A DNA stretch of 64,000 nucleotides from an uncultured delta proteobacterium (GTDB taxonomy: Bacteria; Desulfobacterota; BSN033; UBA1163), in NCBI GenBank assembly GCA_963827685.1, contig CAWHBU010000004.1, forward strand, positions 128,001 through 192,000. The letters are read 5' to 3'. Below, piece after piece: positions 19,991-51,768 of this stretch. The position numbers and the translations under genes are program-made. Positions within the stretch are counted from its first letter, which is position 1; the number at the start of each line of letters is the position of its first letter. The notes under the pieces are model-generated. The model was not told where the DNA came from, searched no databases, and saw nothing but the letters and a program-made list of their open reading frames with translations.

Positions 19991-20067
19991 GCGCCTGTAG
20001 CTCAGATGGATAGAGCTACGGACTTCTAATCCGTGGGTCGGGGGTTCGAATCCCTCCAGGCGCGCCA
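19991..20067 (+). tRNA. tRNA-Arg (anticodon TCT); integration site of the adjacent element
   Basis: gcgcctg acceptor stem, acgga-CTTCTAA-tccgt anticodon arm, GGTTCGAATCC, CCA end. Confidence 0.97.
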
Positions 20068-20073
20068 AAGATT

Positions 20074-21189
20074 TCAAGCACTTGCAATGGTGCTTGTTCC
20101 AATAGAATCCGGGTTTCCCACTATTTTCCCACTATTGAGAGCCAACTTTTCCGCTTGCTTCCTTTGGTATTCAATATCCGACCCAATGTAAAAGCCTTCC
20201 GTTGTCTTGACCGTGGTATGCCTAAGTTGATCCTTGATCGCTAAGGCCGGTACTCCCTTCAAGTGCATCAAAGAGGCTGTGGTATGTCTCAATTCTTTCC
20301 ATGAGTAAAGTTTCGTGTCGATCCCTAAAGACCTCAACACTTTCCTAAAGGGCTTAAATATGTTCCAATGGTCGTATGGAGTGCCATCAGGCTTAGAGAA
20401 TACCCATTCCCCAGGCTTAGAAAACCCTTGGAAGAGGTCTATTAGCTCTCTTTGCAGAACAACCATTTGACCTCTACCAGTGGAATCCTTGAGGGTTTTG
20501 GAAGAGGGGAGATAGATCACTCCGCTATTAAAGTCAACCCGTTCCCATCTAAGGCCCCTGAGTTCGGATTCTCTCATTCCCGTGTAATAGGCTGTCAGGA
20601 TCATCGGTCTAAGCCATTCAGGAGAGGCTTCAAGAATCTTCTCAATTTGTTCCTCAGTGAAGAAGTTTCTAAGGCCCTTTTTCTCAGGATAGAGCAGACC
20701 GCTTTTTGTCGTGGACGGAAATGGGTTCGATTCCATTAATTCACGCCCTACGGCAAAATTAAAGAGTCTCCGTAGGCCAGCCAGGGTCCGATTAACATGG
20801 GCCTCGGTAACCGGTTCTCCACCACGTTGTTTAGGAGTTGATTTAACTTGGTCCCTGAATGCGAAGAGGTCTTTTCGGGTGATCTGTGATAACTTGCGTC
20901 CACTGAAAAAATTCAGATAGACAGATCCCTTGCCCAAGATATATTCCTTCTGATCGCCTTCTCTTCGGTAGAGTTCCATCAGCTCATCAAAGCTGATTCT
21001 CTCTTGCCTCTCCATCACTTCATAACGACCGCCCTTGATTCTTTTTTCTCTATCTATTTTCTCTTTAAGTGCCATGGAAAGTTTAGGCCCCACCGCTTTC
21101 TCATGCTTCTTTGAATGCTCGTAATAGGTGATGTAATAGATTTCACCCACCTTGTAGATACCCTTATGCTTAGTCTTCTCACGTTTCAT
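20074..21189 (-). CDS. Tyrosine integrase
   Basis: N-terminal arm-binding region; YYTGMRESEL, ELRHT, LRHTTVKTTEGFY. Stop codon is 6 bp from the tRNA end. Confidence 0.92.
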   Translation of the reverse strand: MKREKTKHKGIYKVGEIYYITYYEHSKKHEKAVGPKLSMALKEKIDREKRIKGGRYEVMERQERISFDELMELYRREGDQKEYILGKGSVYLNFFSGRKLSQITRKDLFAFRDQVKSTPKQRGGEPVTEAHVNRTLAGLRRLFNFAVGRELMESNPFPSTTKSGLLYPEKKGLRNFFTEEQIEKILEASPEWLRPMILTAYYTGMRESELRGLRWERVDFNSGVIYLPSSKTLKDSTGRGQMVVLQRELIDLFQGFSKPGEWVFSKPDGTPYDHWNIFKPFRKVLRSLGIDTKLYSWKELRHTTASLMHLKGVPALAIKDQLRHTTVKTTEGFYIGSDIEYQRKQAEKLALNSGKIVGNPDSIGTSTIASA

Positions 21190-30906: not shown

Positions 30907-31119
30907 CTCCTATTTTCCCCTTCCTATGCATACGTCCGAATGTTGTCCGTGCTCATGCCAATTCTTTGTATAAACCGATGCCAATTTCTTGTCGTAAATT
31001 ATCAGCAGATTCCCAGAATTATTCTCCTCAGCAGCCTTGTGAAATTAAAAGACCCTACCAATTATCCCAATAATACAAATACTAAGACTTAAAGTCAATT
31101 TATTAATAATAATGACTCT

Positions 31120-31512
31120 ATGTCGCTGTTAAATACCCTACAATTGAAATATCCTCTCCTCCAAAAAGGAGTGGATATGGCCAATATTAAGAAGAAGCTC
31201 GGAATTAGACTATTTCAGTTGAGAAATGAAGCCGGTCTTACCCAAGCTGAACTTGCTGAAAAAGCTGATCTTAGCATTGACTCAATAAGTAGGATAGAAA
31301 GAGGAGAAAGGGCTCCGTCATTAGAATCGTTGGAAAACATTGCTTCAGCCCTGGGGGTTGAACCAATGGAATGCTTTAACTTTAATGGAAAGGAAATTGC
31401 AATACTGGCTGAAGGATCACCAGAAACCTTGGAATTGTGGAACCTCTTGAAGAGTAAAAAGCGAGACCAAATCAAAAAAATACATGATATCGCTAAGATT
31501 TTATTACGTTAG
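31120..31512 (+). CDS. XRE-family HTH regulator, controller (C)-protein-like (likely start ATG 31177)
   Basis: LGIRLFQLRNEAGLTQAELAEKADLS..SISRIERGERAPSLESLENIASAL; AAGGAG RBS. Confidence 0.88.
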   Translation: MSLLNTLQLKYPLLQKGVDMANIKKKLGIRLFQLRNEAGLTQAELAEKADLSIDSISRIERGERAPSLESLENIASALGVEPMECFNFNGKEIAILAEGSPETLELWNLLKSKKRDQIKKIHDIAKILLR

Positions 31513-31569
31513 TTAGACAAGTGGAGTCACCCATAAGTCGGCCTCACTATCCTCCTCTCTTTTCCCTCT

Positions 31570-31728
31570 TCATCCCCGATCCACCACCCTTACCATCTCC
31601 AAAAATTCCTCCTTGGTAAATACCCCCTTCTCCACAAGCAACCTGGTGAGGGCTCCCTGTTGGACAACCTGGGACATGAGGAGTTCTTCAAAGGAAACGA
31701 TTTGCTTAGGGTCAATGGCGGTTGCCAT
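31570..31728 (-). CDS. Small hypothetical protein (52 aa; not in the ORF track)
   Basis: Translated by hand: MATAIDPKQIVSFEELLMSQVVQQGALTRLLVEKGVFTKEEFLEMVRVVDRG; AGGA RBS. Confidence 0.6.
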   Translation of the reverse strand: MATAIDPKQIVSFEELLMSQVVQQGALTRLLVEKGVFTKEEFLEMVRVVDRG

Positions 31729-31769
31729 GAGACTTCCTGTGAAAGATTTACAAACCTTGTTCTAAAGAT

Positions 31770-32456
31770 CTAAATCCAATGCATTGTATATCTTGAATAA
31801 TTATACTCATCTATTCTTTTCAGAAGTGACCTATCATCGGGGTTAGGGGCATAATTCCTAACATGCCATGCCATGATTTTCATTTTCTTACAGAATCTAA
31901 AATACGGGTCATCGGCAGAATCGGAAAAATAGAAACAATCATATTTAAAAGCTATGTTTGAGTCCCAAAGGGGAAGGAAATTGGGGGCAAAAAGGCAAAG
32001 AGCCTTGGCAACGGAAACAGGACTCTTTCGACCATCTCGTTGCCGTTTCAGCGCTTCATTGAACCTATTAAATAAACCTTTTATTGTGTGCTCATCAACA
32101 TCTGACAATTCCTCAATATTTTTGTTTTTTAAATCGCTCAAAACAGCCAAATCGGTGCTTATGCAGCTAACCAATCCGTCAAAAGCATAATTGGAATAAA
32201 GATAATTCCATCCCCGGATTATAATGCCAACGCCCTTAGCCATGTTCTCAGGGTTGCCCCAGTTCTCCGAGACAACTCCTAAGGCCTCAAAATAAATCGG
32301 CCCTCTATTTTCCCGGTGATTGTACAATTCATACCCTTTGCGGAATTCCTCATAATCTGGAATGTGAAAATCTATATCGGCATCCATAATTGACTCACCT
32401 TCCCCCTCGCACATAGACCTCCGAATGCCTCTCATGCTCCAACCAATTCTTTGCAT
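31770..32456 (-). CDS. Hypothetical protein with an HhH-glycosylase-like motif (likely start 32387)
   Basis: SPVSVAKALCLFAPNFLPLWDSNI and C-terminal LKRIDEY; RBS overlaps the end of the PLD gene. Confidence 0.5.
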   Translation of the reverse strand: MQRIGWSMRGIRRSMCEGEGESIMDADIDFHIPDYEEFRKGYELYNHRENRGPIYFEALGVVSENWGNPENMAKGVGIIIRGWNYLYSNYAFDGLVSCISTDLAVLSDLKNKNIEELSDVDEHTIKGLFNRFNEALKRQRDGRKSPVSVAKALCLFAPNFLPLWDSNIAFKYDCFYFSDSADDPYFRFCKKMKIMAWHVRNYAPNPDDRSLLKRIDEYNYSRYTMHWI

Positions 32457-32991
32457 AGAGCGAAGCCAATTTCTTGTCTTTGATCACAAGAAGATTTTCT
32501 GCATTCTTTTCTTCGGCAGCCTTTGTGAAATTAAAAGACCCGGTAATCACGGTCTCCCCATCGATAATCATCACCTTGTTGTGGGCTATGGCGTGTTTAG
32601 CATCTATCTTGACAGGGATCCCTTGGTTATAGAGAAAAGTGGCTGATGAATACTTTTGTGTCCTTTGGCTCTTGTCCAGGACAACTTCCACCTTCACTCC
32701 TCTCTTATGGGCATTCAACAGTGCTTTGGCGATGGGAGCGGATGTGAAGGAGTAGGCTTGGACAAGGATGGTGGTTTGGGCTTTGTTCAACTCTTTTATG
32801 ATGGCTTCGGTCGCACCCCCTTTGGGGGAGAAATAGACTTCCCAGGTGCAGGTGGTGGGTTTTTCTTGGGGGAGGGTGATGGAGGGAGATAATATGCACC
32901 AAAGGGTAATGGTAAAGAGCGTAAGTAAAGCGGTTATTCGATTCATTCGGTTCCTACTTGTTTCTTTATCTGATTGCGGAATCGTAACCAA
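32395..32991 (-). CDS. Secreted phospholipase-D-family (Nuc-like) nuclease
   Basis: Signal peptide; YFSP, AYSFTS, single HKD motif HNKVMIIDGETVITGSFNFT, NAENL. Confidence 0.9.
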   Translation of the reverse strand: MVTIPQSDKETSRNRMNRITALLTLFTITLWCILSPSITLPQEKPTTCTWEVYFSPKGGATEAIIKELNKAQTTILVQAYSFTSAPIAKALLNAHKRGVKVEVVLDKSQRTQKYSSATFLYNQGIPVKIDAKHAIAHNKVMIIDGETVITGSFNFTKAAEEKNAENLLVIKDKKLASLYAKNWLEHERHSEVYVRGGR

Positions 32992-33073
32992 AACATAAGA
33001 CTGAGGTGAGGCTGTGGTCAGCCAGTGGCTCTTCAGTCCAATCGGTTAAGAGTGGGGACTTATAGATACACAA

Positions 33074-34444
33074 TCAGCCGTGAAAGCGTTCTTGTAACCA
33101 ATCAGTCAGTTGGGGTCCTTCCAATTTTCTCGTCGTGTTACCTTCCCGAACGTACACCTCTCCATCGAAATGCACAACTCCAGGTTTTGCTACCGGTGGC
33201 ACATCAACTGCGCAAATGACCGAGTTATTCCAAGGCTCAAATCTGACATAGACTTTGCCCAAAAGGATTGGATGAAAGAGGGAGGAGCAAAGCAAATCTC
33301 GCAGTTTCTGTTCAAAACCGTCCCTATTTTTTTTCTTGCATAACCGGAAGTCTCTTTCAATACCTTTTATTTCACGCTTGTCAGAGACTCCGATGAACAA
33401 CGTGCCACCAGATGAATTCAAGAAAGCTGCAACAGTTCTGAGAGCAGACTTGAGCACAATTTGACTCGATGCGTTCGTATTCACGTCAATCTCTAAAGTC
33501 TCCTTGAACTCAATTGTTTGGCACTCGCCTCTCTTCAAACCATCTTCAATTGAAATCTGGTATTTACGCTTCTTCCTCTCATTAGAAATGAAGTACCAAC
33601 TTAACAATAGAATCACCGTCACCCATGACAAAAATGCAATGATAAAATTGAATCGCTTTAGCACTTGCAATGCCTCTCGTTGAGGAGAAAAATTGAGAGG
33701 GACTAAGATTGTGCCTACCGTTTTGTTGGAATGATCAGTAATCGGTGTCACCAGAATTAGATACTCCTTTCCCTCGATCTTTCTTTCCTGAACTGGGGTT
33801 GCAACTAATTTTGACAAATTGATTCTGTCAAGTTCCAAGGGTATCCCACCCCAATGCATTCTTAGATTCCCATGAGCATCAAATACTGCGTAATCCACTA
33901 TATTATCAGTTTCCCTCGTCGGTAGTTTCGTAGCCTGTTCTACGTTCAATTTGTTAAACTTCTTCGCATTTGTAGCGAGTGTTTCATCATCTTCTTTCAG
34001 GTTTTTCGGGTCTGCAATCCCCAAGACTATCGAGCCATCTTTAATCTTTTTAAGTAGAAGTCGCCATTTCTCACCAGCAAATGTGGTCACAGTTGTGAAC
34101 TTCGAAGGTTCTAAGCTCATTAGGAGCCTCGGGGAAGGGATGAGGCCAGGAATAAAGCCTTCTATATCTATGACAACACCGTTTTCAGCAATCACATAGT
34201 ATCTCGGAACTGGAAATGAAGCGTCACGATATTTCTTCAAATCCCAATGGTCAACGTACAACACAGCGTCTTTGACTTCCTTGGTCCAATCATTGAGTTG
34301 TGAAAGAGCAGTCTTCTTTGCTTGATTCTCGACAAATACGTATTGGACAATGGCAACAGCTGAGAAGAACAATGCGGAAAACAGCAGAACCCAAAGTATC
34401 TGCTTATGAGTCTCTTTCAAGTTTAGCTTTGAAAGTATTCCCAC
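33074..34444 (-). CDS. 2-TM extracytoplasmic (Cache-like) sensor fused to a cytoplasmic Schlafen/AlbA_2 domain
   Basis: TM1, about 225-aa loop ending GKEYLILVTPITDHSNKTVGTILV, TM2, then GECQTIEFKET...TVAAFLNSSGGTLFIGVSD...GIERD...YVREGNTT. Confidence 0.82.
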   Translation of the reverse strand: MGILSKLNLKETHKQILWVLLFSALFFSAVAIVQYVFVENQAKKTALSQLNDWTKEVKDAVLYVDHWDLKKYRDASFPVPRYYVIAENGVVIDIEGFIPGLIPSPRLLMSLEPSKFTTVTTFAGEKWRLLLKKIKDGSIVLGIADPKNLKEDDETLATNAKKFNKLNVEQATKLPTRETDNIVDYAVFDAHGNLRMHWGGIPLELDRINLSKLVATPVQERKIEGKEYLILVTPITDHSNKTVGTILVPLNFSPQREALQVLKRFNFIIAFLSWVTVILLLSWYFISNERKKRKYQISIEDGLKRGECQTIEFKETLEIDVNTNASSQIVLKSALRTVAAFLNSSGGTLFIGVSDKREIKGIERDFRLCKKKNRDGFEQKLRDLLCSSLFHPILLGKVYVRFEPWNNSVICAVDVPPVAKPGVVHFDGEVYVREGNTTRKLEGPQLTDWLQERFHG

Positions 34445-34469
34445 CTCTTGTGCCCTCCGTAATTACCTT

Positions 34470-34578
34470 ATTCTCTGCAATATCCCTGGCGATTATGTCT
34501 GGTGGCGGAGGTTTTCCGAGTCCTCAAGGTTTTCATCTTTCAGCCAGAATATATCGGGGCTTACCTCGTCCCTCTGCT
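34470..34578 (-). pseudogene. Relic C-terminus of a second, different HsdM
   Basis: Minus strand reads RDEVSPDIFWLKDENLEDSENL/PPDIIARDIAEN (one frameshift), the typical HsdM LDIFWLKDESL...LP.P tail. Confidence 0.7.
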
Positions 34579-34590
34579 CCGACCGGAGTT

Positions 34591-37500
34591 TTATACCCCC
34601 ACATATACGCTTCGCCCCTCTCCATAGTAGCTCTCAAAAATATGCTGATACACGGCGTTGCATTTCTGAGTATAAATTTCCCGGGTGAATACCCGAGGCA
34701 GTTCATCCAGTTTATCCTCGACGGCCACACGGACAGCCGCTCGTGTCGCCTGTGTTTTCCGCCAGTCGAGAACCAATTTTTCCCGTTTCAGCGTCTCCAA
34801 CAGTTCACGGGCGATGCTTTTGACTTGCCCCTCTTCCTTCTTGGTGAGTTTCATCTCGGGCTTGGTGATGAGGTCAAACACCGCCAGTTCTTCCTCGGAC
34901 AGCCCCTCCGAAACCCCCCGTTTCTCCTCTTCTTGCAGTTCGTTTACAAACTTGAGCAGTCGCTCAAAGAACTCCTCTAAGTTGGCCGCACCCTGATTGT
35001 ATTCGTCGATCATCTGTTGGAATTTCTCCAAGTAGTCCACCCGGGTCTTGTTCAGTCGCACCATCTTTTCCAAAGCAGAATTGATGGCCCCACGGAGTTT
35101 TTCAATCTCCATGCGCCTCCGTTCTTTGGCAAACTCCTTCTTGAGAGCCTTAAAATCAATCTCGCTGAGGTCGATCAGTTTTTTCTTCCCATCGGGGGTC
35201 GATGATCCCAGAATGACATACCCTTTGGCTGTGATGTTCTCGTCCAACAGATCCTCTACCTCTTCCATGATCTTGGATACATCGGCCTCGGGCTGAAGAG
35301 CCTCTATTTTCAGTTGGATGACCCGGAACAGGGCACAAACAGGGACAAACTCGTTGGCCTCGGGGTCGGGGAGTATGGCCTTGAAGATACGGTTGACAGT
35401 ATTGGAGAGGTTGATAAACCGCTTTTTGGTGGTGTCGTTGACCAAAACTACGTCAACGGCCTCATCCAGTAACTTCACCCGCTCGAACCCTTTTGCGGCG
35501 ATGATGGGTTCCACCTTGACGCTTGTTTCCTTGAGAAACTGGACAGTCTGAGCGATGGCCGTTTTGAGCATGGCGACGAGTTCCGCCTTCTCTTTGACCG
35601 GTTCTTCTCCGGGTTTCACCCCTCCGCCCGAACCCGAACCATAGATCGCCAAGGCCCTTTGAAGGTTACGAAATACCCCCACGTAGTCAACGATAAGCCC
35701 GTTCACCTTGTCCTTAAAGACCCGGTTGGCCCGGGCGATGGTCTGCATCAATGTGTGGTTCCGCATTGGCTTGTCAAGGTAGATGGCGGAACAGGATGGG
35801 ACATCGAACCCGGTCATCCACATGGCGCAGACAAACACCAACCGGAACAGATCATCAGGGTCTTTGAATTTGGTGTCCAGATCCTCCTTCACCATTCGTT
35901 GGCGATGAGGGACGATGTCCACGCCCTTCTTTTTCAACTCGGCAACTTCATTCTGAGACGAGGAAACCACGACCGCCATGTCTGTTTCCCGCATATAGGA
36001 AATCTTTTTCTCCACGTCCTGTCGTCCCGGCCCTTCCAGTTTGTTTATCTGCTTTGTCAGTCGTTGGATCTTCTGCTTCCAGTATTTCTGCACCTTGTCA
36101 TACATCTTCACGGCGGTGGCTTTATCAATGCTCACAACCATGCCCTTACCGAGTTGTCCCCGCTCGGTGAAGTGTTCGACGATGTCCTCGGCGATCTTTT
36201 CCAAGCGATCTTCCCGGGTGATAAGGTGATATTCCCGGGAAAATTCCCTTTCCAACTTCTTCTCTTGGGCCTCGTCAAGCTCTGCCTCTTCCAACAGCCG
36301 ATCCATCCCCTCCTTGAAAGCTCTCTCGTCCTTTAATTGAAGTTCAGGGATACGATTTTCATAGTAGAGCGGCACCGTGGCTCCGTCGTCCACGGACTGT
36401 TTGAAGTTGTAGATAGAAACATACTCACCAAATACCTCCCGAGTCTTTTCCTCTCCTATGATGAGTGGCGTTCCGGTGAAGGCGAGGAATGACGCTTTGG
36501 GAAGGGCGTTTCTCATGTTCAGGGCGAGGGTGTCATATTGGCTCCGGTGTGCCTCATCGGTGATGACGATAATGTCCTCCCTCTGCGATAGGACAGGATG
36601 GGGACTGCCATCCTCGGTGCGAAATTTGTGGATCAGGGTGAAAACGAACCGGTGATCCTCGGTGAGGAGGCGCCGGAGGTCTTTTGAACTTTCGGCTTGA
36701 CAATGGCCTTCCGTGATTACCCCGGCATTTGCAAAGGTCTTGTAGATCTGGTCGTCCAGTTCCTGCCGGTCGGTAACGACGACGAATGTCCAGTTCCCCG
36801 GCACTTTCCGCAAGACCTTCTGGGAGAAGAAAATCATGGAAATGGACTTGCCGCTTCCCTGCGTATGCCAGAACACACCCAAACGGCCCTTGCGGTTCTT
36901 GATTTCTTGCAGGGCAGCCATGGCGTTTTCCACCCCAAGATACTGGTGGTTCTTGGGCACAATCTTGACTATCCCGCCCCGGACTTCCATGAACAGGAGA
37001 AAGTTCTCCAAGATGTCCAGAAACCGGATTGGCTCGCAAGTCCCTCGGAGAACGGTTTCAAGGGAGATGACTCCTTCTTCCCCCTCGCTGTTGATTTTCT
37101 TCCAGTCATTGAAGTGGCCCCAGTCGGATGTGATGCTTCCAACCTTAGCCTCACTTCCATTGGAGAGGATGATGAAGGCATTGAACCAGAAGAGTTGCGG
37201 GATGGTGTCCTTGTAGTCTGTCAGATTTCCCGTGAAGGCTGTTTGAATCTGTTTGTGGCTTGCCTTGAGTTCGACAAACAGGAGCGGGATGCCGTTGACG
37301 AATCCCACGAGGTCGGCCCGCCTCTTATACATTTCCCCCACGAGCCAAAACTGGGAAACCAAGAGAAAATCATTGTTGGCGTGGTTGTCCCAATCTACGA
37401 GCCTGACAGTTTCAACCTTCTCCCCACCTCCTTCCGGGTCGGGAATATGGACTTTGACGCCGTTTCGCAGAAGTTGGTATATCTCCCGATTGGCGGCAGG

Positions 37501-37770
37501 CATACTGAGCCGAGAACGGTCACGAGTCAATTCCTCAAACATAAGATTATTTGCTTCGGGAGGGAGGTCGGGGTTCAGACGCTTGAAAGCAATACGAAGG
37601 CGGGATTGGAGGATAATTTCGGATTGATTATCCCGGCCAAGAGTACCGGAAGGGCCAAGAATTTCATGCAGGGCGTTGATATGACCCCATCCCAATTTTT
37701 TAAGCATTTCGATGGCGGGCAGTTCAATGAGTTCTTGCTCGGAATACGAATAGCTGCCTTTGAGTGTCAT
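34591..37770 (-). CDS. hsdR: Type I restriction enzyme R subunit
   Basis: RADLVGFVNGIPLLFVELK nuclease motif, HTQGSGKS, DEAHRSQ, FTGTP, MQTIARANR. Confidence 0.97.
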   Translation of the reverse strand: MTLKGSYSYSEQELIELPAIEMLKKLGWGHINALHEILGPSGTLGRDNQSEIILQSRLRIAFKRLNPDLPPEANNLMFEELTRDRSRLSMPAANREIYQLLRNGVKVHIPDPEGGGEKVETVRLVDWDNHANNDFLLVSQFWLVGEMYKRRADLVGFVNGIPLLFVELKASHKQIQTAFTGNLTDYKDTIPQLFWFNAFIILSNGSEAKVGSITSDWGHFNDWKKINSEGEEGVISLETVLRGTCEPIRFLDILENFLLFMEVRGGIVKIVPKNHQYLGVENAMAALQEIKNRKGRLGVFWHTQGSGKSISMIFFSQKVLRKVPGNWTFVVVTDRQELDDQIYKTFANAGVITEGHCQAESSKDLRRLLTEDHRFVFTLIHKFRTEDGSPHPVLSQREDIIVITDEAHRSQYDTLALNMRNALPKASFLAFTGTPLIIGEEKTREVFGEYVSIYNFKQSVDDGATVPLYYENRIPELQLKDERAFKEGMDRLLEEAELDEAQEKKLEREFSREYHLITREDRLEKIAEDIVEHFTERGQLGKGMVVSIDKATAVKMYDKVQKYWKQKIQRLTKQINKLEGPGRQDVEKKISYMRETDMAVVVSSSQNEVAELKKKGVDIVPHRQRMVKEDLDTKFKDPDDLFRLVFVCAMWMTGFDVPSCSAIYLDKPMRNHTLMQTIARANRVFKDKVNGLIVDYVGVFRNLQRALAIYGSGSGGGVKPGEEPVKEKAELVAMLKTAIAQTVQFLKETSVKVEPIIAAKGFERVKLLDEAVDVVLVNDTTKKRFINLSNTVNRIFKAILPDPEANEFVPVCALFRVIQLKIEALQPEADVSKIMEEVEDLLDENITAKGYVILGSSTPDGKKKLIDLSEIDFKALKKEFAKERRRMEIEKLRGAINSALEKMVRLNKTRVDYLEKFQQMIDEYNQGAANLEEFFERLLKFVNELQEEEKRGVSEGLSEEELAVFDLITKPEMKLTKKEEGQVKSIARELLETLKREKLVLDWRKTQATRAAVRVAVEDKLDELPRVFTREIYTQKCNAVYQHIFESYYGEGRSVYVGV

Positions 37771-38969
37771 GCGTTGGCCTCGGCAATAGCGATATCCAGT
37801 TCTGAAACGTCCAGTTCGTCGGAGATGAGTTTGGGGAGGAGAAGATCACGGGTTTGGCGGAGGATACGATTTTTCTTACCAAGAACAGCGAGTTGTTCAG
37901 CGATTGGCAAACATATTTTCTCAAACCGGACAAGGTGTCCCTTCGGAGGATAAAGGCATTCAATCCTTTCCATATCACCTTTAGTTACGGCCTTAAAAAT
38001 TGTCCCTCCGCCCATGATGTCCTCTTCCGTGAAGATTTCTTTGAGTTGATGGAAAGCAAAACATTGGTAACCATCCAAGTTTCGGATCGCAGACAGACCC
38101 CTACCAATAATAATCTTGTGGTCAGTAAGGTTTAACCTTCCTACCGGTGCCCTAACGCTGAAAAGAATATCCCCTGCTTCTGCAATCCTACCGGCAAACG
38201 TGCAATATACCCGTGTTGTCGGGAACCGTTCTCCGAAGTCAGTAACACCTTGATGGAATGGAAGCCCTTCACCATTGGTGTTGTAAAATTCTGATTTCGG
38301 AGATTGCCCCATAAGAATAGAGCAAACATCACTCAAGTGTTTTACCTCCCATCCCTCCGGTATCTTTCCCAAGGACGAATCCACCATCTTGACTTTCTGG
38401 TGGCCGGGGAAGCGGAACTTTACGAACCACTCCCGGTAGAGGGTCTGGGCTATCTCCTCCAATATCTTGATGCGCCGGAGATTGTTCTCGATCAGATCGT
38501 CGTAGGCAGAGAGAATAGAGGCGATTTTATCTTGCGTCTGTCCATCCGAAGGGATGAGCAAAAGGAGGCTATTTAGGTCAGCCTTGTTTACTGCTCCAAA
38601 GACGGCCCCGCTTTCAGCAGCATGAATATTTTCAACGTTGGCCTTTAATAAGTAAAAAATAAACCGCCCCGATCTATTTGGCCGAATTGCACATAGACCT
38701 CGACCAATGCAGCACTCTTCGGTGGCGAGGTTCAAAGCACCAACAGGCGCTCGGACACTCATAAGAATGTCCCGGGGAAGAGCAATCTTGGATGGTAGTG
38801 AGCAATAGGTCGAGGGAGAGGGATGTAATTCTCCGAAATCTCGGTTACCTTGGAAAAAAGGCAGACCATCTCCTCGGTTATTGTAATATTCTGATTTTGG
38901 AGACTGGCCCATAATGATCGTTGCCAGATCTCCAAGCCTCTTTTGCTCCCAAGATGTGGCCATCACCAA
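37767..38969 (-). CDS. hsdS: Type I R-M specificity subunit
   Basis: Two TRDs separated by the conserved [16 protein letters not shown]...FVKFRF and IPEGW regions; [12 protein letters not shown] tail. Confidence 0.95.
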
Positions 38970-40516
38970 CCTTCGATAATTTTCGGGATATTCTCTGCAA
39001 TCCTTTCCTCCAACTCCCTCGCTTTAACGTTCAGGACTTCCAACTCCTCGTTCAACTCCTGCAATCGCTCCTTAAAGTCGAAGTCATCTGCCTCTCCCTC
39101 GGTCACTCCTACATAGCGTCCGGGGTTCAAGCTCCATCCTTGAGCCTCAATTTCCTTAATGGCGGCCACCTTGCATAATCCGGGGACATCTGCATACTTT
39201 CCCTTCGGGAACTTTTCAGCCATCAACTTGGCGCTCTCGTGATGATTCTCATGCTTCTCCCCTCGGTAAAGCCGAACGATATTGGCAAGAAACTCAATCT
39301 GCTCGGGTTTAAAGTCCCTATGGGCACGATCAATCTGGTTGTAGATGTGCCGAGCATCGAGGAACAGCACCTTGTCCTGTCTGTCAGTCCCCTTCTTTGC
39401 TCGGTCGAGGAACCAGAGCATACATGGCAGGGTAACGGTGTAGAACATATTCGGCCCCACCGCTACCATCACGTCCACCGCCCGGTCTTGGATAAGTTTT
39501 TTGCGGATTTCCAATTCAGAGGCCCGGGCGTCTGCCGCCGAGTTTGCCATGACGAAACCGGCTCTGCCCTTCTTGCTCAAGGCACTGTAAAAAATCTGTA
39601 TCCAGAGGTAATTGGCGTTATCGACCTTGGGCAAACCAAGAGGGAAGCGAGGATCGTCTTTGAGGCGGTCTTTATCTACTCGGTCAACATTGAACGGAGG
39701 ATTGGCGAGGACAAAGTCGAATTTCCCCGGACTGGTGTGTAGATCTTCATAGTAGGTGTTTCCCTGTCGGATGTCCCCTGCAAGTCCGTGGACGGCAAGG
39801 TTCATTTTATTGAGGCGACCGGTTTCCGCCACCCGCTCCTGCCCGTAGATGCTGATCTCCGCACTCGGGTTCTTCTTGTGCTCCTCAACGAAATGAGCGC
39901 TCTGGACGAACATACCACCTGACCCACAGGCTGGGTCGAAGATGCGGCCATGAAAGGGTTCCAATATCTCGACGATGAGTTTAACTATTGCTGTCGGAGT
40001 GAAGAACTCCCCCCCCTTTTGTCCTTCAGCCATGGCGAACTTGCCAAGGAAATATTCATAAATTTTTCCGAAAGCGTCTCCTTCAATGTCCATGGGGATG
40101 GAAGCCATGATCTTCAGGAGTTCCACCAAGGATGAGTTTTCCAGCCGGTTGTAGGTCTTAGGCAGGACGTCCTTCAGATCAGGATTCTCCGCTTCGATAG
40201 CCTTCATTGCATCGTTGATTGCCTGCCCGATATTTGCTCCCTCGGGTTTCTGAAGGAGTTTCTGGAAGCGGGCGGTTTCAGGAAGGTAGAGAACACCTTT
40301 TGCTTGATAGTCGGACTTCCCGATCTGTCGGCGTCCTGTCCCCTTGCCCTCCAGTTCCTTCTGGGCGGCGGCGAACTTTTGGTCAGCGTAGCGAAGGAAG
40401 ATAAGACCAAGAACGGGGATTGAATATTCCGAGGATTTGAGTTTGGAGTTCGCCCTCAGTTCGTCGGCGGCATCCCAAAGACGTTTTTCAATCTGGTTGT
40501 TATTCCCAACAGCCAT
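38963..40516 (-). CDS. hsdM: Type I R-M N6-adenine methyltransferase
   Basis: [23 protein letters not shown] and ANPPF motifs. Confidence 0.97.
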
Positions 40517-40988
40517 ATTATCTCCTTCAAAGATTTTTGACGGTTACACACTTTTATTTTGAGATTAAAAGGGAGGCTTCAGTTTGAATAGGAGTTTACT
40601 AAATCAGGAACGGGGTGTCAATGAGAATTGAAGGGCAAGGAAATCCTGTTCTACAAATGTTTAGCGAGCTTTATTTAATTCTTATTCGAAATTTCCAATT
40701 TATTTCACGATGATTTTTTATCACCCAAATTCGGTGAGGATCGACCTTCGAAAACCCCTTTGATATCCGCTTTAGGTCATTCCCTTTGGGTGATAAAAGA
40801 GACACAAATATTACCCAAATTTCGGCTCTCGGCTCTGATTCAGACGGAATAATCAAGCGGGGTTGAACTGTTGCAAATACAAGGCGGATTGTTCATTTTG
40901 CGAAAGCAAAATTACTTATATTTGAAAGCTCATAAAGTCTTAATAACCAAATTATTGTAGCCCTCTGACAATTAATCTTTAGGGCAGC

Positions 40989-41851: not shown

Positions 41852-42007
41852 TCAACTCCCAAATTGCAGACTCCTGATCGCCTCCACCTTCCGGTCATCT
41901 GTGGTGTGGAGATACCTTTCTGTGGTGCGAATATGAGAATGGCCCATGAGGGCCTGGACGGTTTTAAGATCCGCTTCTCTATCCAAAAGGATTGTGGCAA
42001 AGGTGTG
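41852..42007 (-). pseudogene. 3' fragment (51 aa) of a tyrosine recombinase paralogous to 44548-45156
   Basis: HTFATILLDREADLKTVQALMGHSHIRTTERYLHTTDDRKVEAIRSLQFGS*, nearly identical in protein to the intact copy. Confidence 0.9.
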
Positions 42008-42119
42008 AAGGATAACGTGAACAGAAGTGTACTAAATCAGGAACGGGGTGTCAATGGGAATTGAGAGCGGGTGAAAAAGGTCTTGGCATTCCCCAACCTT
42101 TCTGGGATAATACTAAAAT

Positions 42120-44547: not shown

Positions 44548-45156
44548 TCAATGGTATTGAGACACCCCAAATTGCAGACTCCGAATCGCTTCCACTTTTC
44601 GGTCATCGGTGCTGTGAAGATACCTTTCCGTGGTGCGAATATGAGAATGACCCATTAGGGCCTGGACGGTTCTAAGATCATTTCCCTTATCCAGGAGAGT
44701 CGTGGCAAAGGTATGCCGCATGACGTGGGGATGGATTCTCTTTTGGATCAGAGCCCTCTTTGCCGCTGACTTGATGAGGTAGTCAACGGCCTTGGGAGTC
44801 AAGCCCTTTTCCTCGTAGGGTCCATGCTTCCCCAATGTCTGAAAGAGCGGATGAGTCGGTTCTATGACATTCCCGATGGTCTTTAGGTAATCCTTGATGG
44901 CGAGAAGAGTCTCACCCTTGAGGGGAATGCGCCGGAATCTCTTTCCCTTACCGATGACATCAATGACTGCTTGGTTCCGGTATGTTTTGAGATCCTCGAC
45001 CTTCAGACTGCAAATTTCGGCTTTTCTTAACCCGGCTGCGAGAAGGGTAAGCAGAATGGCGTAATCACGTTTGCCTTGTGGAGTCCGTCGATCAGGGACC
45101 CTGAGCATGGCTTGGGCTTCTTCCTCGGTCAAAAATTCAGTCTCTTTCTTTTTCAT
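44548..45156 (-). CDS. Short (catalytic-domain-only) tyrosine recombinase
   Basis: RDYAIL..GLRKAEI, GKGKRFR, HPHVMRHTFAT, MGHS..TTERY. 202 aa, no core-binding domain. Confidence 0.92.
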   Translation of the reverse strand: MKKKETEFLTEEEAQAMLRVPDRRTPQGKRDYAILLTLLAAGLRKAEICSLKVEDLKTYRNQAVIDVIGKGKRFRRIPLKGETLLAIKDYLKTIGNVIEPTHPLFQTLGKHGPYEEKGLTPKAVDYLIKSAAKRALIQKRIHPHVMRHTFATTLLDKGNDLRTVQALMGHSHIRTTERYLHSTDDRKVEAIRSLQFGVSQYH

Positions 45157-47587: not shown

Positions 47588-48054
47588 TTGGGGGCTGGTC
47601 AGCCTTTCCACCGGGTTCCAGACCTGGAATGCACTCGCTATACTGCAACATTACTGCAGGCCATATGTATGAACGTTAACCTACGAAAAAGTATTGAGGT
47701 GAAATTTCTCAAGGTTTAGGGCTAGAATGACGCATATCCTCGCAGTCAGGGACTTTTTAAGAAGCAATTTCTCCCAAGTTATCTTGGAGAGTCCTTGGCG
47801 ACCTGGCTCCTGAAGGGAACTGGGGAGATTCAGAGAAATACAGTAGTCACCCATACTTAGGAAGATTGTAACTATCCGAACTGATCACATGGAGTCCTGC
47901 CCGTTAAGATTTAGCAAATCGAGATTGCCCATTCGTTCCAGGGCGATTCTCTTAATCACCTAAGGGATTGGTTCCCCGGGGATATTTGTTCCTAACACGA
48001 TCCCTAAAAATATTTTTGAACAACTTCAAAAAAACACAAACTTCAAAAAAACAC

Positions 48055-48102
48055 TTGACAAGACAATATCATTTTGGTAGTAAATAAATCGAGCGCTTGT
48101 TT
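48055..48102 (+). promoter_or_regulatory. tetR promoter with a probable operator
   Basis: TTGACA at 48055, -10-like TAGTAA 17 bp later, and an imperfect palindrome aaatcgagcgcttgttt at 48086-48102. Confidence 0.55.
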
Positions 48103-48131
48103 TAAATACTTCTGAAACTTAACCAGGCGCT

Positions 48132-48800
48132 ATGAAAAAAGTGGCTAAACCGCTAATGCCAAAGAACACAACCAATGAGCGCCCTGAACACCTGATTAAT
48201 GCTCCAGCAAAGAATACCGATCTAATTCAAAAGAAGCATCAGCTGATCGTGGACGGCGCATGCAAGGTGTTTTTCAAGAAGGGATACCATCCAACGACCA
48301 TCCGTGATATAGCCCACGCCTGTGCTATGTCTATGGGGCAACTCTACCACTATATCTCTTCTAAAGATGATGTGTTGTACTTGGTTCACAAACATATGCA
48401 AAACATGTGGTATGAATACTTGAAAAACTCAGCTTATGAAGAAGAAAAGGATCCAGGAAAAAAGTTATTACGGGCTCTTAATGAAACCTTAAAATTCATG
48501 ACTGAGAATAGAAGGCTAATCCAATTTATTTATTCCGAAAGTAAATATTTAGATAGGAAGCATCTGCAGGCAGTTCTAGAAATGGACAGGAAAAATGTGA
48601 TTGGATTCTGGCACGAGATTCTACAGGAGGTAATGCAAGAAAAGTCAATTAAGGGCGACGGGAATTTCTTAGCCAGCCTAATTACTTACCTATGTGTATT
48701 TATGCCCTTGAGGGGGTGGACTCTTAAGGGTATGTCATTTAAGCAGGAGAAAGCATACCTAGTGGACTTTATTTTCAATGGGTTGGGTGTCATTCGATAA
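48132..48800 (+). CDS. TetR/AcrR-family regulator
   Basis: FFKKGYHPTTIRDIAHACAMSMGQLYHYISSKDDVL. Confidence 0.92.
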   Translation: MKKVAKPLMPKNTTNERPEHLINAPAKNTDLIQKKHQLIVDGACKVFFKKGYHPTTIRDIAHACAMSMGQLYHYISSKDDVLYLVHKHMQNMWYEYLKNSAYEEEKDPGKKLLRALNETLKFMTENRRLIQFIYSESKYLDRKHLQAVLEMDRKNVIGFWHEILQEVMQEKSIKGDGNFLASLITYLCVFMPLRGWTLKGMSFKQEKAYLVDFIFNGLGVIR

Positions 48801-48959
48801 TGCACATTTTTGTAAAATTATTTATCTAAAAGGCTAGCAATATGAATGTCCTACGATTGGTGTACAAATACAAAATTTCTGAGATAGATTTCAACTAGTG
48901 ATTGATTAAATTACTCTGTGAACCTGTTGAATGGCCGTTCGGGAAGGGTACAGGGTGAT

Positions 48960-49480
48960 ATCGCTGGGCAAGGCAGCCATCTCAACAGGAAGCTAGCAGA
49001 GACATCGGCAAGCCCATTGCCATAGGTTTGGTACGTGGGGAGCTGATGTCGGTGTTGTGGCGTGAGCCGAGTTAGAAAGCAAGGATTTACCTGGGATGAG
49101 ATATCACACTGCGGGAGAGATAAAAACTTTGGGCCGAGAAGCCTTGTTTGCAAAATGCGATGTGACCGACGAAACGGATGTAATTGAAATGGCTTAGAAA
49201 ACGATTGGTAAGCTTGGGCATATGGGTATGCTTGTCACTAATGCAGCGTTACCGTTGCCTGACCTATACTGGAATCACCACTTAGGCAATGCGAATTAGT
49301 AATAAGGGGTAATTTAGTGGGAGGTTTTCTTTCTTCAAAGGCGGTATTGCCGCAAATGATTAAGCAAAAGGGCAGGAGTATCATGAATATCTCTTCTCTG
49401 GCGGCTGATGAGAGAGACGAGGGGACTGGTAGTACGGGTTTAGCTTATGTATCTAAGGCGGGGCTTGGCCGCTTTACTTT
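48960..49480 (+). pseudogene. Degenerate short-chain dehydrogenase (SDR)
   Basis: Broken fragments GKAAI.TG/SRDIGKPIA, KCDVTDE, LVTNAA, VLPQMIKQ..SIMNISS, AY-SKAG, with stops and frameshifts. Confidence 0.8.
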
Positions 49481-49524
49481 GTGTCAAGATTTATATGTTT
49501 TAGAGGTTCCGAAGGAGGACAGTA

Positions 49525-51048
49525 ATGGGAGTCCACGATTTTAATGTGTACAATCTTATCAAACGTAATGGCCGAATTATTGGCGAACGAATTGCTCTAA
49601 TATCTGGGAATCAAAGGATAAGTCACTTGGAATTTTTGGAGAAGGTTAATCAATTGGCCTTTGGACTTCTACGCATAGGGGTTGGAAAAGGTGACCGTAT
49701 TGGTATCCTTGCTCATAATTGCTTAGAGTTTTTTTATCTATGCGGGGCAGTGGCTAAAATAGGTGCCATCATGTTGCCTATCAACTGGCGTCTCAATCCA
49801 GAAGAAATTAAATATATTATCTCCGACGGAGTTCCAAGAGTTCTGTTTGTGGATTCTGAGTTTGAGGGTATGGTACGGTCTTTCATTTCTGATTTCAGAT
49901 TTGTTGAAAAGGTCTATGCTACGGACAAAGGCGGAGAAAGTTTTGAAAATTTCAATAGCTTAATGGAAAATGATGGGGCTTGTTCAAAGATAGATGTTTG
50001 CCCCGACGATAGCTATGTTATTATTCATACTGCCGCGGTTCATGGAAGACCCCGTGGGGCTACCCTTACTCACCAAAATATAATTCTATTTAACTTGCAG
50101 CAAATGTACTATTGGCATTTGACAAAGGAAGATGTCCATATGGCTCTACTACCATTATTTCACATAGGTGGGCTTGGTATAGCTTTGAGCGTTGGGCAGG
50201 CCGGAGGCACAAACATTATTTTGCCCAAATTTGATTCCGACTTGGCTCTCAAACATATTGAAGAAGAGAAGGTTACTATTTTGGGTGATTTTCCCCCTAT
50301 CCTTAAGAACTTACTTGACAGAGCGCAAGAAACTGACCGTAATCTTTCCAGCCTGAGAATCGTTGCTGGATTGGATCATCCCGATACAGTTAGGCGACTT
50401 GAAAAAATGACTGAAGCTATTTTTTGGACAGGCTATGGTCAAACGGAAACTTCGGGTGTTTTTACCTATGCTCCTTACTTTGAGAGGCTCGGTTCTGCTG
50501 GAACTCAGAGTTTCTTAACTGACATTGAGATAGTCGATGCCTGCGGTAATATTTTAGGGGTAGAGAGAACAGGCGAAATAGTAGTTCGCGGAATGACCGT
50601 ATTCAGGGGTTATTGGAATCTCGAAAGAGATACTGAATATACCTTTCGTGATGGCTGGCATCATACGGGTGACGTGGGTTACCTGGATAAACAAGGGTAT
50701 CTTTGGTATAAGGGCAGAACACCTATCAAGGAATTGATCAAATCGGGTGGAGAAAACGTATATCCAGCTGAGGTAGAAAAAGTGATCTTACAACATCCCT
50801 CTGTAGAGGAGACTGCAGTAATCGGCATCCCTGATTCCCAATGGGGCGAGGCTATTAAGGCAATCTGTGTTTTGAAAAAGGGGGAGGCACTTACAGAAGT
50901 AGAGCTAATCGAATTTGTGGCAGGTCGAATTGCCCGATTTAAGAAACCTAAGTATGTTGTTTTTGTTTCGAATCTACCAAAAACTGAGGACGGATTCATC
51001 AATCTCGAAAAAGTTAAGGCAGATTACGGCGGAACTTACTCGGTATAA
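49525..51048 (+). CDS. AMP-dependent acyl-CoA ligase
   Basis: HTAAVHGRPRG variant P-loop, YGQTE, HTGD, IKSGGENVYPAEVE. Confidence 0.92.
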   Translation: MGVHDFNVYNLIKRNGRIIGERIALISGNQRISHLEFLEKVNQLAFGLLRIGVGKGDRIGILAHNCLEFFYLCGAVAKIGAIMLPINWRLNPEEIKYIISDGVPRVLFVDSEFEGMVRSFISDFRFVEKVYATDKGGESFENFNSLMENDGACSKIDVCPDDSYVIIHTAAVHGRPRGATLTHQNIILFNLQQMYYWHLTKEDVHMALLPLFHIGGLGIALSVGQAGGTNIILPKFDSDLALKHIEEEKVTILGDFPPILKNLLDRAQETDRNLSSLRIVAGLDHPDTVRRLEKMTEAIFWTGYGQTETSGVFTYAPYFERLGSAGTQSFLTDIEIVDACGNILGVERTGEIVVRGMTVFRGYWNLERDTEYTFRDGWHHTGDVGYLDKQGYLWYKGRTPIKELIKSGGENVYPAEVEKVILQHPSVEETAVIGIPDSQWGEAIKAICVLKKGEALTEVELIEFVAGRIARFKKPKYVVFVSNLPKTEDGFINLEKVKADYGGTYSV

Positions 51049-51210
51049 GATTTGACTTAAAAACTTTTCCAATACCATTAAGGCGTAAAATTCTCAAGCG
51101 GAAGACAGAAATAAATAGAGTGAAGCCCAGTAGCCGTCAGTATGATTTCAAGAATTCGGCGGCAAATCTTTTATATTGTTACATTATTGTACAAAATAAC
51201 TCGAATTTAG

Positions 51211-51470
51211 GTAAGCCACTGGTTTTACCAGGGCGACTTGATAAGGTTTGACCGTTCAGCATCACATCCTCCCGTGACTTGATGAGAGAAGCAAACGGAA
51301 CAGGAGAATATGATGGAAGATAGTTTTCAGGAGTATCGAAACTTATCCATGCGAAATGGGATTGCAAATAGCATGTGGTGTTTATCCCAGAGGAGAGACA
51401 ACAAGCGCTCTTTGGGCAGGCACGACGCCACTTTGCTGAAATATTTCATACCTTAACGCAACAAATCACT
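51211..51470 (+). pseudogene. IS200/IS605 tnpA relic with left-end hairpin
   Basis: EYRNL../KWDCK*HVVFIP..RQQALFGQARRHFAEIFH matches the TnpA N-terminus. Confidence 0.8.
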
Positions 51471-51597
51471 ATTGTAAAGATATTACCGAGATACTACCTT
51501 AGGAGAGGAGGTGGTAGCTTTCTGGTGAGGCCTTGGGTCCCGCAACGCGCTTGGGGAGATTAGTAGCCAAGCTAAAAATCACTTTAGGAGGTGAATT

Positions 51598-51768
51598 ATG
51601 GTTATTGTCAACGAAGAAGTATGTGCCGCGTGCGGCCAGTGTGTAATTGTGTGTGCAGTGGAAGCAATCAAGGGGTGGGGAATACCTATAATAGATGATG
51701 AAAAATGTACTGAGTGTGGCCTGTGTGTCGAATATTGCCCAGTTGATGCATTGGAGGTGAAACAATGA
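51598..51768 (+). CDS. 2x[4Fe-4S] ferredoxin (56 aa; not in the ORF track)
   Basis: [24 protein letters not shown]...[16 protein letters not shown]; AGGAGG RBS; ATGA overlap with the next gene. Confidence 0.93.

Follow-up and report, generated by a model that had tools for sequence, protein, structure and literature searches.

A two-pass membrane protein with an outer sensor module and a Schlafen domain, encoded beside type I restriction-modification genes in a mobile island

We analyzed a 64,000-nucleotide stretch of DNA from an uncultured delta proteobacterium (contig CAWHBU010000004.1, positions 128,001 to 192,000; hereafter 'the window'), in which a gene at 33074-34444 encodes a transmembrane (TM) helix, an outer domain, a second TM helix and a C-terminal Schlafen domain. 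The product is predicted to be a two-pass, inner-membrane, receptor-type prokaryotic Schlafen, probably oligomeric. We predict that it is a signal-gated membrane Schlafen RNase used in defence, and we give this prediction about an equal chance of being right or wrong. The topology, the sensor family with its alternative outputs, the catalytic residues, the conservation of the linker, the island location and the linkage to restriction-modification (R-M) genes were computed directly. The ligand, the signalling across the membrane and the RNA target are inferred; the outer domain is probably of the Cache type, and the role is probably in defence. What is new here is a membrane-receptor variant of the prokaryotic Schlafen effectors, together with an unnamed sensor family.

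Gene layout and the Schlafen domain

An open reading frame (ORF) check showed that the minus-strand frame is the sole long one across the gene (Table 1). Kyte-Doolittle windows of 19 residues exceeded 1.6 only at residues 14-39 and 261-287, and Lys/Arg-rich stretches lie ahead of TM1 and behind TM2 (NERKKRK after TM2). Therefore, the N-terminus and the C-terminus are predicted to lie inside and the loop (residues ~39-264) outside. In a Pfam scan of the protein, SLFN_AlbA_2 was the only domain above threshold, and HisKA, HATPase_c and HAMP gave no match even at E≤1. An earlier reading of the same DNA without database searches (the original prediction) had described a TM1-loop-TM2-Schlafen layout that lacks kinase and HAMP domains; hydropathy and Pfam located each element where that reading had put it, and the lack of these domains was confirmed as well.

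Table 1. Features of the receptor-Schlafen gene and of its surroundings in the window
Feature	Position	Strand	Basis or remark
TM-sensor-TM-Schlafen gene	33074..34444	-	456 aa, GTG start, GGAGGG 8 nt upstream
TM1 (about residues 16-38)	34331..34399	-	hydropathy; helix in AlphaFold2 (AF2) model
Extracytoplasmic sensor domain (residues 39-264)	33653..34330	-	AF2 model; sensor-profile search
TM2 (about residues 265-287), continuous with last sensor helix	33584..33652	-	hydropathy; AF2 model
Basic juxtamembrane linker (residues 288-300)	33545..33583	-	linker-length survey
Single-lobe Schlafen/AlbA_2 domain (residues 301-456)	33077..33544	-	Pfam; Foldseek
Catalytic motif E307-x4-E312-x-K314	33503..33526	-	invariant in 36/36; aligned with SLFN11 PESQSIEFK
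hsdR (type I restriction subunit)	34591..37770	-	Pfam
hsdS	37767..38969	-	Pfam
hsdM	38963..40516	-	Pfam
PLD-family Nuc/NucT/DrmC-like nuclease, signal-peptide-like N-terminal segment	32395..32991	-	library scans
tRNA-Arg(TCT)	19991..20067	+	synteny with two same-genus genomes ends exactly at 3' end
Tyrosine integrase, left island edge	20074..21189	-	

The AF2 model of the whole protein, with the family alignment as input, had a predicted local distance difference test (pLDDT) score of 89.9, and a Foldseek search with the whole chain matched integrative models of two-TM receptors (WalK, E=6.5e-5; McpB, E=3e-4). A homodimer prediction with the full protein scored 0.45 and one control scored 0.30, and we count this neither for nor against pairing. 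Three other identities were considered and rejected: a histidine kinase, because there are no kinase domains and only ~20 residues between TM2 and the Schlafen domain; a gene-call artefact, because of the high-confidence fold and 36 full-length homologues; and a phage gene, because no viral contig matched in a search with one peptide pattern. A promoter and terminator scan of 31500-35000 gave counts that were not above those of shuffled sequences.

The Schlafen assignment rests on several lines of evidence. SLFN_AlbA_2 (PF04326) matched residues 307-441 with E=2.6e-20 and 73.5 bits, against a cut-off of 25.3. A word-indexed search returned 83 relatives at E≤1e-3, of which 36 are full-length, are 25-88% identical and align end to end; all 36 matched SLFN_AlbA_2, and their loci come from metagenome-assembled genomes (MAGs) labelled with about six phyla. 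The motif E307-CQTI-E312-F-K314 and D375 are invariant in the 36 aligned homologues. In all, the nuclease part keeps E307, E312, F313, K314, an LN-x2-GGTL-x2-G block, D365, D375, R433 and G435 in every one of them, and the outer domain keeps W67, G89, G137, L156, F163, G199, G200 and P202. The more general pattern E-x4-(E/D)-x-K is present in 74 proteins of a wider set, which were selected by that very pattern. The Schlafen core and its E-x4-EFK acidic residues, which had been recognized by eye in the original prediction, are thereby borne out.

Searched against the PDB, the family profile found SLFN11 (6.4e-7) as well as SLFN5, SLFN14, SLFN12 and SLFN13, and it also picked up, weakly, the prokaryotic protein CbCash (E=0.0092). 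A Foldseek search with the C-terminal domain matched 3lmm, SLFN5/11/12/13/14 and SAMD9 at a probability of 1.00. In the hidden Markov model (HMM) alignment, GE-x4-EFK falls on PESQSIEFK of SLFN11, and D375 stands, by alignment only, opposite an Asp at chain positions 251-252 of pig SLFN11, which we take to be the third catalytic acidic residue of SLFN11/13. Judged from the sequence, the Schlafen catalytic residues of the protein are intact. The fold and catalytic residues match those of the human tRNases SLFN11 and SLFN13, which differ in having two lobes per chain and a helicase domain. Given that the protein has one lobe and the human enzymes have two, the active-site cleft would probably need oligomerisation.

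According to PMC13056530, E-x4-(E/D)-x-K is the prokaryotic Schlafen catalytic motif, and the E17/D22/K24 triad of CbCash has been proven for tRNA cleavage (PMC13462974). These positions bear on an explanation in which the protein is a membrane-tethered regulator that uses its AlbA_2 domain to bind, but not to cleave, DNA or RNA. Source labels of relatives such as 'AlbA family DNA-binding domain' and 'Putative DNA-binding domain' agree with it, some mammalian Schlafens are described as lacking catalytic residues (PMC13462974), and a minority of the sensor family carries an unassigned tail of ~150 aa that could bind DNA. However, none of the 36 homologues departs from E307, E312, K314 and D375, which match proven catalytic positions, and we consider a purely binding role very improbable.

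The partial matches included further Schlafen proteins. The same genome encodes a second one, P0088 (400 aa; L186 6341-7543, minus strand, which is G000 contig C2), with an N-terminal AlbA_2 domain (E=6.4e-18), a C-terminal part without assignment and no TM segment. Other C-terminal Schlafens (P0052-55/58/61, P0063/66/73, P0065-72, P0078, P0060) seem, from hydropathy only, to be membrane-anchored; among them are proteins with two TM segments and a bPH_2 domain by Pfam label, a second two-TM family with a loop of ~300 aa, three-TM forms of 279 aa and a seven-TM form of 415 aa. These layouts suggest that Schlafen is more widely used as a receptor output. Two proteins are, by Pfam label, fusions of a receiver domain and Schlafen (P0057, P0059), and in two others AlbA_2 is fused to type I restriction R-subunit domain 3 (P0080, P0081; 730-739 aa).

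The outer domain and its exchangeable outputs

Modelled alone with AF2, the sensor had a pLDDT of 92.6 and a predicted template modelling (pTM) score of 0.87. The model begins with a long helix, which is followed by a five-stranded module and two helices; after these comes a second module, of beta-beta-alpha-beta-beta-beta order, and the last helix continues into TM2. The original prediction had seen two similar halves in this region. Both are present, YYVIAENGVVIDIEGFIPG at residues 82-100 and YAVFDAHGNLRMHWGGIP at residues 184-201, and in the model each starts a beta-hairpin of one alpha/beta module; their likeness, however, is weak, as hhalign paired module 1 and module 2 only poorly (P=0.011, probability 3.9%).

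We also considered whether the outer domain belongs to the Cache domains, as had been proposed from its last strand. This strand, YLILVTPITD...VGTILV, is present at residues 228-249 and is the source of an sCache_3_3 match at 219-254, which in P0001 remained below threshold (12.4 bits against a cut-off of 28.8). Sub-threshold sCache_3_3 matches were found in eight of the 36 members at E≤1 (best 0.031) and ArlS_N matches in three, and the closest Cache match in the wider sensor family was Cache_WalK in the distant relative P0226 (25.1 bits against 27). A Foldseek search with the sensor gave a weak list (E 0.01-0.06, TM-scores 0.15-0.27) headed by a WalK model, the DosP PAS domain and the dCache domains of PctA, McpB, Tlp3, Mlp37 and CtaA, and single modules matched 8py0, 4hi4 and 3vol at probabilities of 0.84-0.89. 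Its neighbours in ESM features were clusters of sCache_3_2/3_3, Stimulus_sens_1 and dCache_3 at 0.90-0.94. The family shares with the Cache/PDC sensors WalK, ArlS, PctA and Tlp3 a long N-terminal helix followed by alpha/beta modules between two TM helices, and it has sub-threshold matches to sCache_3_3, sCache_3_2, dCache_1, Cache_WalK and ArlS_N.

Three results count against the Cache label and the interpretation that includes it. No Pfam model of the Cache clan reached its cut-off in the receptor family, the sensor-only model gave no Foldseek match at E≤1e-3, and when the sensor was compared by hhalign with 16 true sCache_3_3 proteins of related genomes, a set of low diversity, the probabilities were 2-8% over 21 columns that correspond to the last hairpin. 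Unlike Cache/PDC receptors, the protein also has neither HAMP nor kinase, and its sensor stays at TM-scores ≤ 0.27 without meeting any Pfam threshold. In other words, the proposed strand is there and the Cache identity did not pass these thresholds. The evidence points in one direction throughout, each item being below threshold, and the domain is probably Cache/PAS-like.

Next, we surveyed the proteins in which this sensor occurs. A sensor-only profile, made from 21 sequences translated from the window and the homologue loci, was searched against 1.84 billion representatives and found 361 clusters (50% identity) at E≤1e-3, of which 245 were at E≤1e-10. Outputs were surveyed among the 150 listed matches of the 361, and 69 of these have at least 150 residues after the sensor. 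Among these 69 listed long-tailed matches, 50 have a Schlafen output, all assigned with a custom HMM, and 15 have a class III nucleotide cyclase; the latter were assigned by Pfam Guanylate_cyc in seven of the seven scanned (1e-20 to 6e-32) and, in eight more, by an HMM made from those seven. In the seven (P0136, P0152, P0156, P0171, P0196, P0209 and P0229), the cyclase domain is carried on the same TM1-sensor-TM2 layout. Three of the 69 have a tail of ~150 aa of no assigned kind and one is a frameshifted call. Outside the 69, P0139 has the order Pkinase (Ser/Thr)-TM-sensor-TM, with the sensor at its C-terminus, and P0226 has a tail of 138 aa that is likewise without assignment. A Pfam scan of four tails (P0224, P0226, P0230, P0231) gave no match.

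E125-x-W127 and G199-x2-P202 are retained in every output class. In a quick tree, whose deep branches are weak, the cyclase-linked sensors fall in one half, alongside six Schlafen-linked sensors including that of the window, and the kinase-linked sensor sits within a Schlafen-linked clade (Shimodaira-Hasegawa-like approximate likelihood ratio test, 100 and 96). Given that varied outputs occur on one sensor family and are placed in this way in the tree, the outputs have been exchanged, which is a hallmark of a signalling input domain. We conclude that the outer loop is a true sensor module of receptors, which can be exchanged between proteins and belongs to an unnamed family. The original prediction of a receptor that cleaves RNA in response to an outside cue is upheld for its architecture and its sensor module; the trigger and the RNase activity are not among the parts borne out.

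Of 74 proteins, 59 have a spacing of 20-22 residues between the end of TM2 and the first catalytic Glu (range 15-25), and the DNA that is best kept between alleles, in three loci compared, runs from the end of TM2 through the linker into the catalytic motif (85-95%). The Schlafen domain begins with its catalytic strand, and any shift or rotation of TM2 would therefore be passed on almost directly to this strand or to the pairing of the lobes.

The same survey introduces the possibility of general signal transduction, in which an environmental or envelope-stress ligand leads to RNA cleavage that slows growth or remodels translation, Schlafen being one more output. That one sensor family serves class III cyclases (15 of the 69 listed long-tailed matches) and one Ser/Thr kinase fits this explanation, and so do the receiver-domain fusions P0057 and P0059. 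Moreover, the sensor is conserved across distant members and not hypervariable. Receptor-type class III cyclases and Ser/Thr kinases resemble the protein in their sensor family and in their TM1-sensor-TM2 layout, whereas its output is a nuclease and not an enzyme of second-messenger synthesis or phosphorylation. Its neighbourhoods, described below, speak on both sides of this explanation.

Genomic setting and linkage to type I restriction-modification

In the window, hsdM, hsdS and hsdR have complete domain sets, are co-oriented and lie directly upstream of the receptor gene, and no HSDR_N match other than this hsdR occurs in the 5.2-Mb genome. The window is collinear with two same-genus genomes up to the last base of tRNA-Arg, and neither genome matches it any further. 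Besides the R-M genes and the integrase, the island beyond this point contains a primase-like gene, DUF932, a helix-turn-helix (HTH) gene, a second integrase fragment and an insertion sequence (IS). A search of 40 relatives, of which 14 belong to the same genus, did not find the full-length receptor-Schlafen protein; two of the 40 gave weak Schlafen-only matches. A second copy of the tRNA-Arg 3' end that could mark the right border was not found within 3 mismatches, and the right flank (47600-52800) showed no synteny in the five same-genus genomes tried. The position of the gene downstream of and in the same orientation as hsdR, and its setting in a mobile island, both of which had been claimed earlier, thus agree with the coordinates of hsdR, with the tRNA-Arg and integrase, and with the DNA unmatched in the two same-genus genomes.

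We also compared the loci of homologues in GTDB genomes and metagenomes. After merging of duplicates, 15 distinct neighbourhoods were distinguished; the short contigs L086, L087, L092, L095-L098, L104 and L108, and also L088, were left out of this number. Within the flanking DNA covered, both hsdM and hsdR occur in seven of the 15 (the window, L081/82, L083, L001, L085, L008 and L091); in L008 they lie downstream of the receptor homologue, and in L091 the start of the homologue overlaps the hsdS stop. One further neighbourhood (L005/93/94) has an EcoEI-type HsdR-like gene alone, without hsdM. The R-M proteins at the homologue loci are just 25-41% identical to those of the window, and they therefore represent at least five different type I systems. 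In L081/82 the receptor is 76% and HsdR 32% identical, and the DNA similarity covers only 34453-33050, which is essentially the gene. In L083 the receptor is 73% identical, and identity reaches 98.5% over the final 68 residues of HsdR. These two cases, one with gene-only similarity and one with similarity at the HsdR end, indicate that the gene has been recombined with different R-M systems and nevertheless comes to lie beside them time and again.

The remaining seven neighbourhoods have no R-M gene, and this weighs against a defence role, especially as four of them (L003, L004, L006 and L007) are housekeeping-looking. L003 and L004 contain metabolic genes and a response regulator; L006 contains LexA, mraZ/mraW, PBP and acetyl-CoA synthetase genes; and L007 contains genes for an amidase and a BRCT protein. 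The other three have TPR, AAA_25 and integrase genes (L002), a PLD gene with many small co-directional ORFs (L084) and ORFs without assignment (L090). The association with R-M that had been proposed for the window is therefore upheld as a recurrent linkage to at least five systems, and it does not extend to nearly half of the neighbourhoods. The survey of neighbourhoods proposed at the same time found hsdM and hsdR in seven of 15 and housekeeping-looking settings in four of 15.

The settings of L003, L004, L006 and L007 agree with general signalling. On the other hand, the recurrent linkage to at least five type I R-M systems with cassette-like borders, and the location of the window copy in an integrase-bearing island unmatched in relatives, are not what general signalling leads one to expect. 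Furthermore, all prokaryotic Schlafens assayed in PMC13056530, PMC13462974 and PMC13552941 served phage defence, as far as the available text of these papers goes. We therefore regard general signal transduction as rather unlikely.

The nearness to hsdR suggests another explanation, namely a PrrC-like guard of type I R-M, in which the nuclease is held latent on the restriction complex and is freed by an anti-restriction protein, the membrane part serving for positioning only. In the window, L081/82, L001 and L091 the gene lies right after hsdR or within the operon, a sequence scan found no terminator-like site on the gene's strand between hsdR and the receptor gene, and the fusions of AlbA_2 to an HsdR domain (P0080, P0081) join the two components in one chain. 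There is also a precedent in PrrC, a tRNA-Lys anticodon nuclease that is held latent by EcoprrI (PMC1484252). As with PrrC/EcoprrI and RloC (PMC1484252, PMC3458546), a putative tRNA cutter is here linked to a type I R-M locus, and this likeness suggests a back-up to restriction. Unlike them, the protein has an unrelated nuclease fold, no ABC-type NTPase and a membrane sensor, and its R-M linkage is not obligatory. Pfam found no PrrC-type NTPase regulatory domain in it, and a conserved outer domain of 225 aa that is common to cyclase receptors is hard to square with a mere anchor. In addition, about half of the family has no nearby R-M gene, and therefore the protein must be able to work alone. 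Given these points, we consider such a guard improbable.

Several other features of these loci were noted. A YgjP-like metallopeptidase gene is found in L001 (9629-9928), L088 (225-650) and L008 (19547-19807); in L001 and L008 it occurs together with the type I R-M genes, and in L001 and L088 it is placed between hsdR (L001) or the contig end (L088) and the receptor gene. L084 176-10664 carries ~14 small ORFs on one strand, with short spacers that share repeats with the window, and resembles a cassette array. L003 and L004 are two contigs of one Desulfobaccales MAG, which thus has two diverged receptor-Schlafen copies in non-defence-looking settings.

Downstream of the receptor gene in the window are the PLD-family nuclease gene and then an ORF of 228 aa without assignment. 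The PLD gene also follows the receptor gene in L084 (3751-4332) and was not seen in the other loci. A periplasmic nuclease beside a periplasmic sensor may constitute a two-gene module. A partial copy of the 3' end of the PLD gene (30915-31038 versus 32400-32523) is 71% identical and lies 1.4 kb away, adjoining the DUF932 gene just upstream of it, and a second partial copy occurs in L084 at 5718-5880; these copies resemble the scar of a cassette insertion or recombination. Elsewhere in the island, a 47-nt direct repeat (91%; 40585-40631 and 42018-42064) flanks a 223-aa membrane ORF beside hsdM, and a 162-nt repeat (83%; 41858-42019 and 44566-44727) duplicates part of a 202-aa integrase ORF, which suggests nested insertions in the island. 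Outside the island, 12289-13821 (minus strand) encodes an AAA_22 ATPase of 510 aa whose C-terminal part is a SPOR (peptidoglycan-binding) domain; it shows a weak match to the Schlafen group 3 helicase and adjoins a Mutator-family transposase.

Known Schlafen systems and the proposed function

Prokaryotic Schlafens have been established as phage-activated tRNases fused to varied sensors (PMC13056530, PMC13462974). The first of these papers reports 5,930 proteins with 55 architectures; the share of proteins with unannotated fusions is 17.2%, and 69.6% are encoded close to defence genes. The second reports Schlafen clusters linked to R-M. The terms 'transmembrane', 'membrane', 'periplasm' and 'Cache' are absent from the main text of PMC13056530, of which Supplementary Table 2 (55 architectures, 558 unannotated clusters) may list the family, and 'transmembrane' is absent from the text of PMC13462974. 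The literature searched contained no description of a membrane-receptor Schlafen, although supplementary tables may list the family.

Two characterized systems are the most useful for comparison. RorSlfn5, a Schlafen with an Ig-like sensor (PMC13056530), also combines a single-lobe nuclease and a sensor in one polypeptide within a defence island, and it senses a cytoplasmic phage tail assembly chaperone. The protein described here, by contrast, carries its Schlafen domain at the C-terminus, and its sensor, flanked by two TM helices, is placed outside the cytoplasm. CbCash, a Schlafen-Csx15 tRNase activated by cA4 (PMC13462974; PDB 9ylu), has its triad E17/D22/K24 at positions equivalent to E307/E312/K314. 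It is activated when Schlafen domains held by the sensor dimer are re-arranged, and a similar mode is proposed for the receptor-Schlafen protein; CbCash itself is soluble and filament-forming, responds to a cytoplasmic cyclic oligoadenylate signal and has no membrane part.

Taken with this background, the receptor architecture and the R-M neighbour in a mobile island indicate that the protein may couple a signal from outside to an antiviral arrest of translation. The sensor would pick up a conserved periplasmic or envelope cue, and TM2 and the short linker, whose length is fixed, would relay the signal to the strand with which the cytoplasmic Schlafen nuclease begins. A changed pairing or exposure of the Schlafen lobes would then lead to cleavage of tRNA or another RNA, and translation would halt. 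The receptor gene would be a travelling accessory cassette that has repeatedly been set beside type I R-M systems, where it would most likely add a second line of phage defence, acting by abortive infection or dormancy. Given that the sensor is as conserved as the nuclease, a conserved cue fits better than a phage-specific protein.

Several further observations do not favour a defensive Schlafen RNase of this kind. The mean column identity of the sensor (0.40-0.44) is close to that of the nuclease (0.48), whereas the phage-sensing domain of pSlfn5 is reported to be variable, and since the sensor is common to cyclase receptors, general signalling fits as well as defence. No PADLOC or NCBIfam model matches the protein. 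In a plasmid collection, 11 records matched, all within the Schlafen domain only and none at full length. Among viral contigs, the sensor profile, searched with one peptide pattern, gave 116 pattern matches, of which none was confirmed. In the collections searched, the full-length receptor-Schlafen protein was found in no named or cultured organism.

A more far-reaching version of the defence reading is that the protein is an outside-in bacterial immune receptor, which senses a danger cue before, or independently of, entry of the phage genome and switches on the Schlafen tRNase. Candidate cues are damage done to the envelope during adsorption or injection, fragments of the cell wall, and a compound that lysed neighbours set free. 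We consider this version unlikely. If it is true, it would mean a pre-emptive or community-level shutdown of translation by a single protein that corresponds to the route from extracellular alarm signal to Schlafen in animals, and membrane receptors would regularly use Schlafen as an output domain.

In the available text of PMC13056530, PMC13462974 and PMC13552941, those parts of prokaryotic Schlafens that sense phage are located in the cytoplasm. A predicted defence-type RNase wired to an outward-facing sensor introduces the question of which signal outside the cytoplasm reports infection, and the cyclase-linked sister proteins could be ready-made reporters for finding the ligand. The sensor family itself, with 361 clusters at 50% identity, serves at least three outputs. 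Finally, the gene adds a Schlafen case to the old theme represented by PrrC, in which tRNA nucleases and type I restriction systems travel together.

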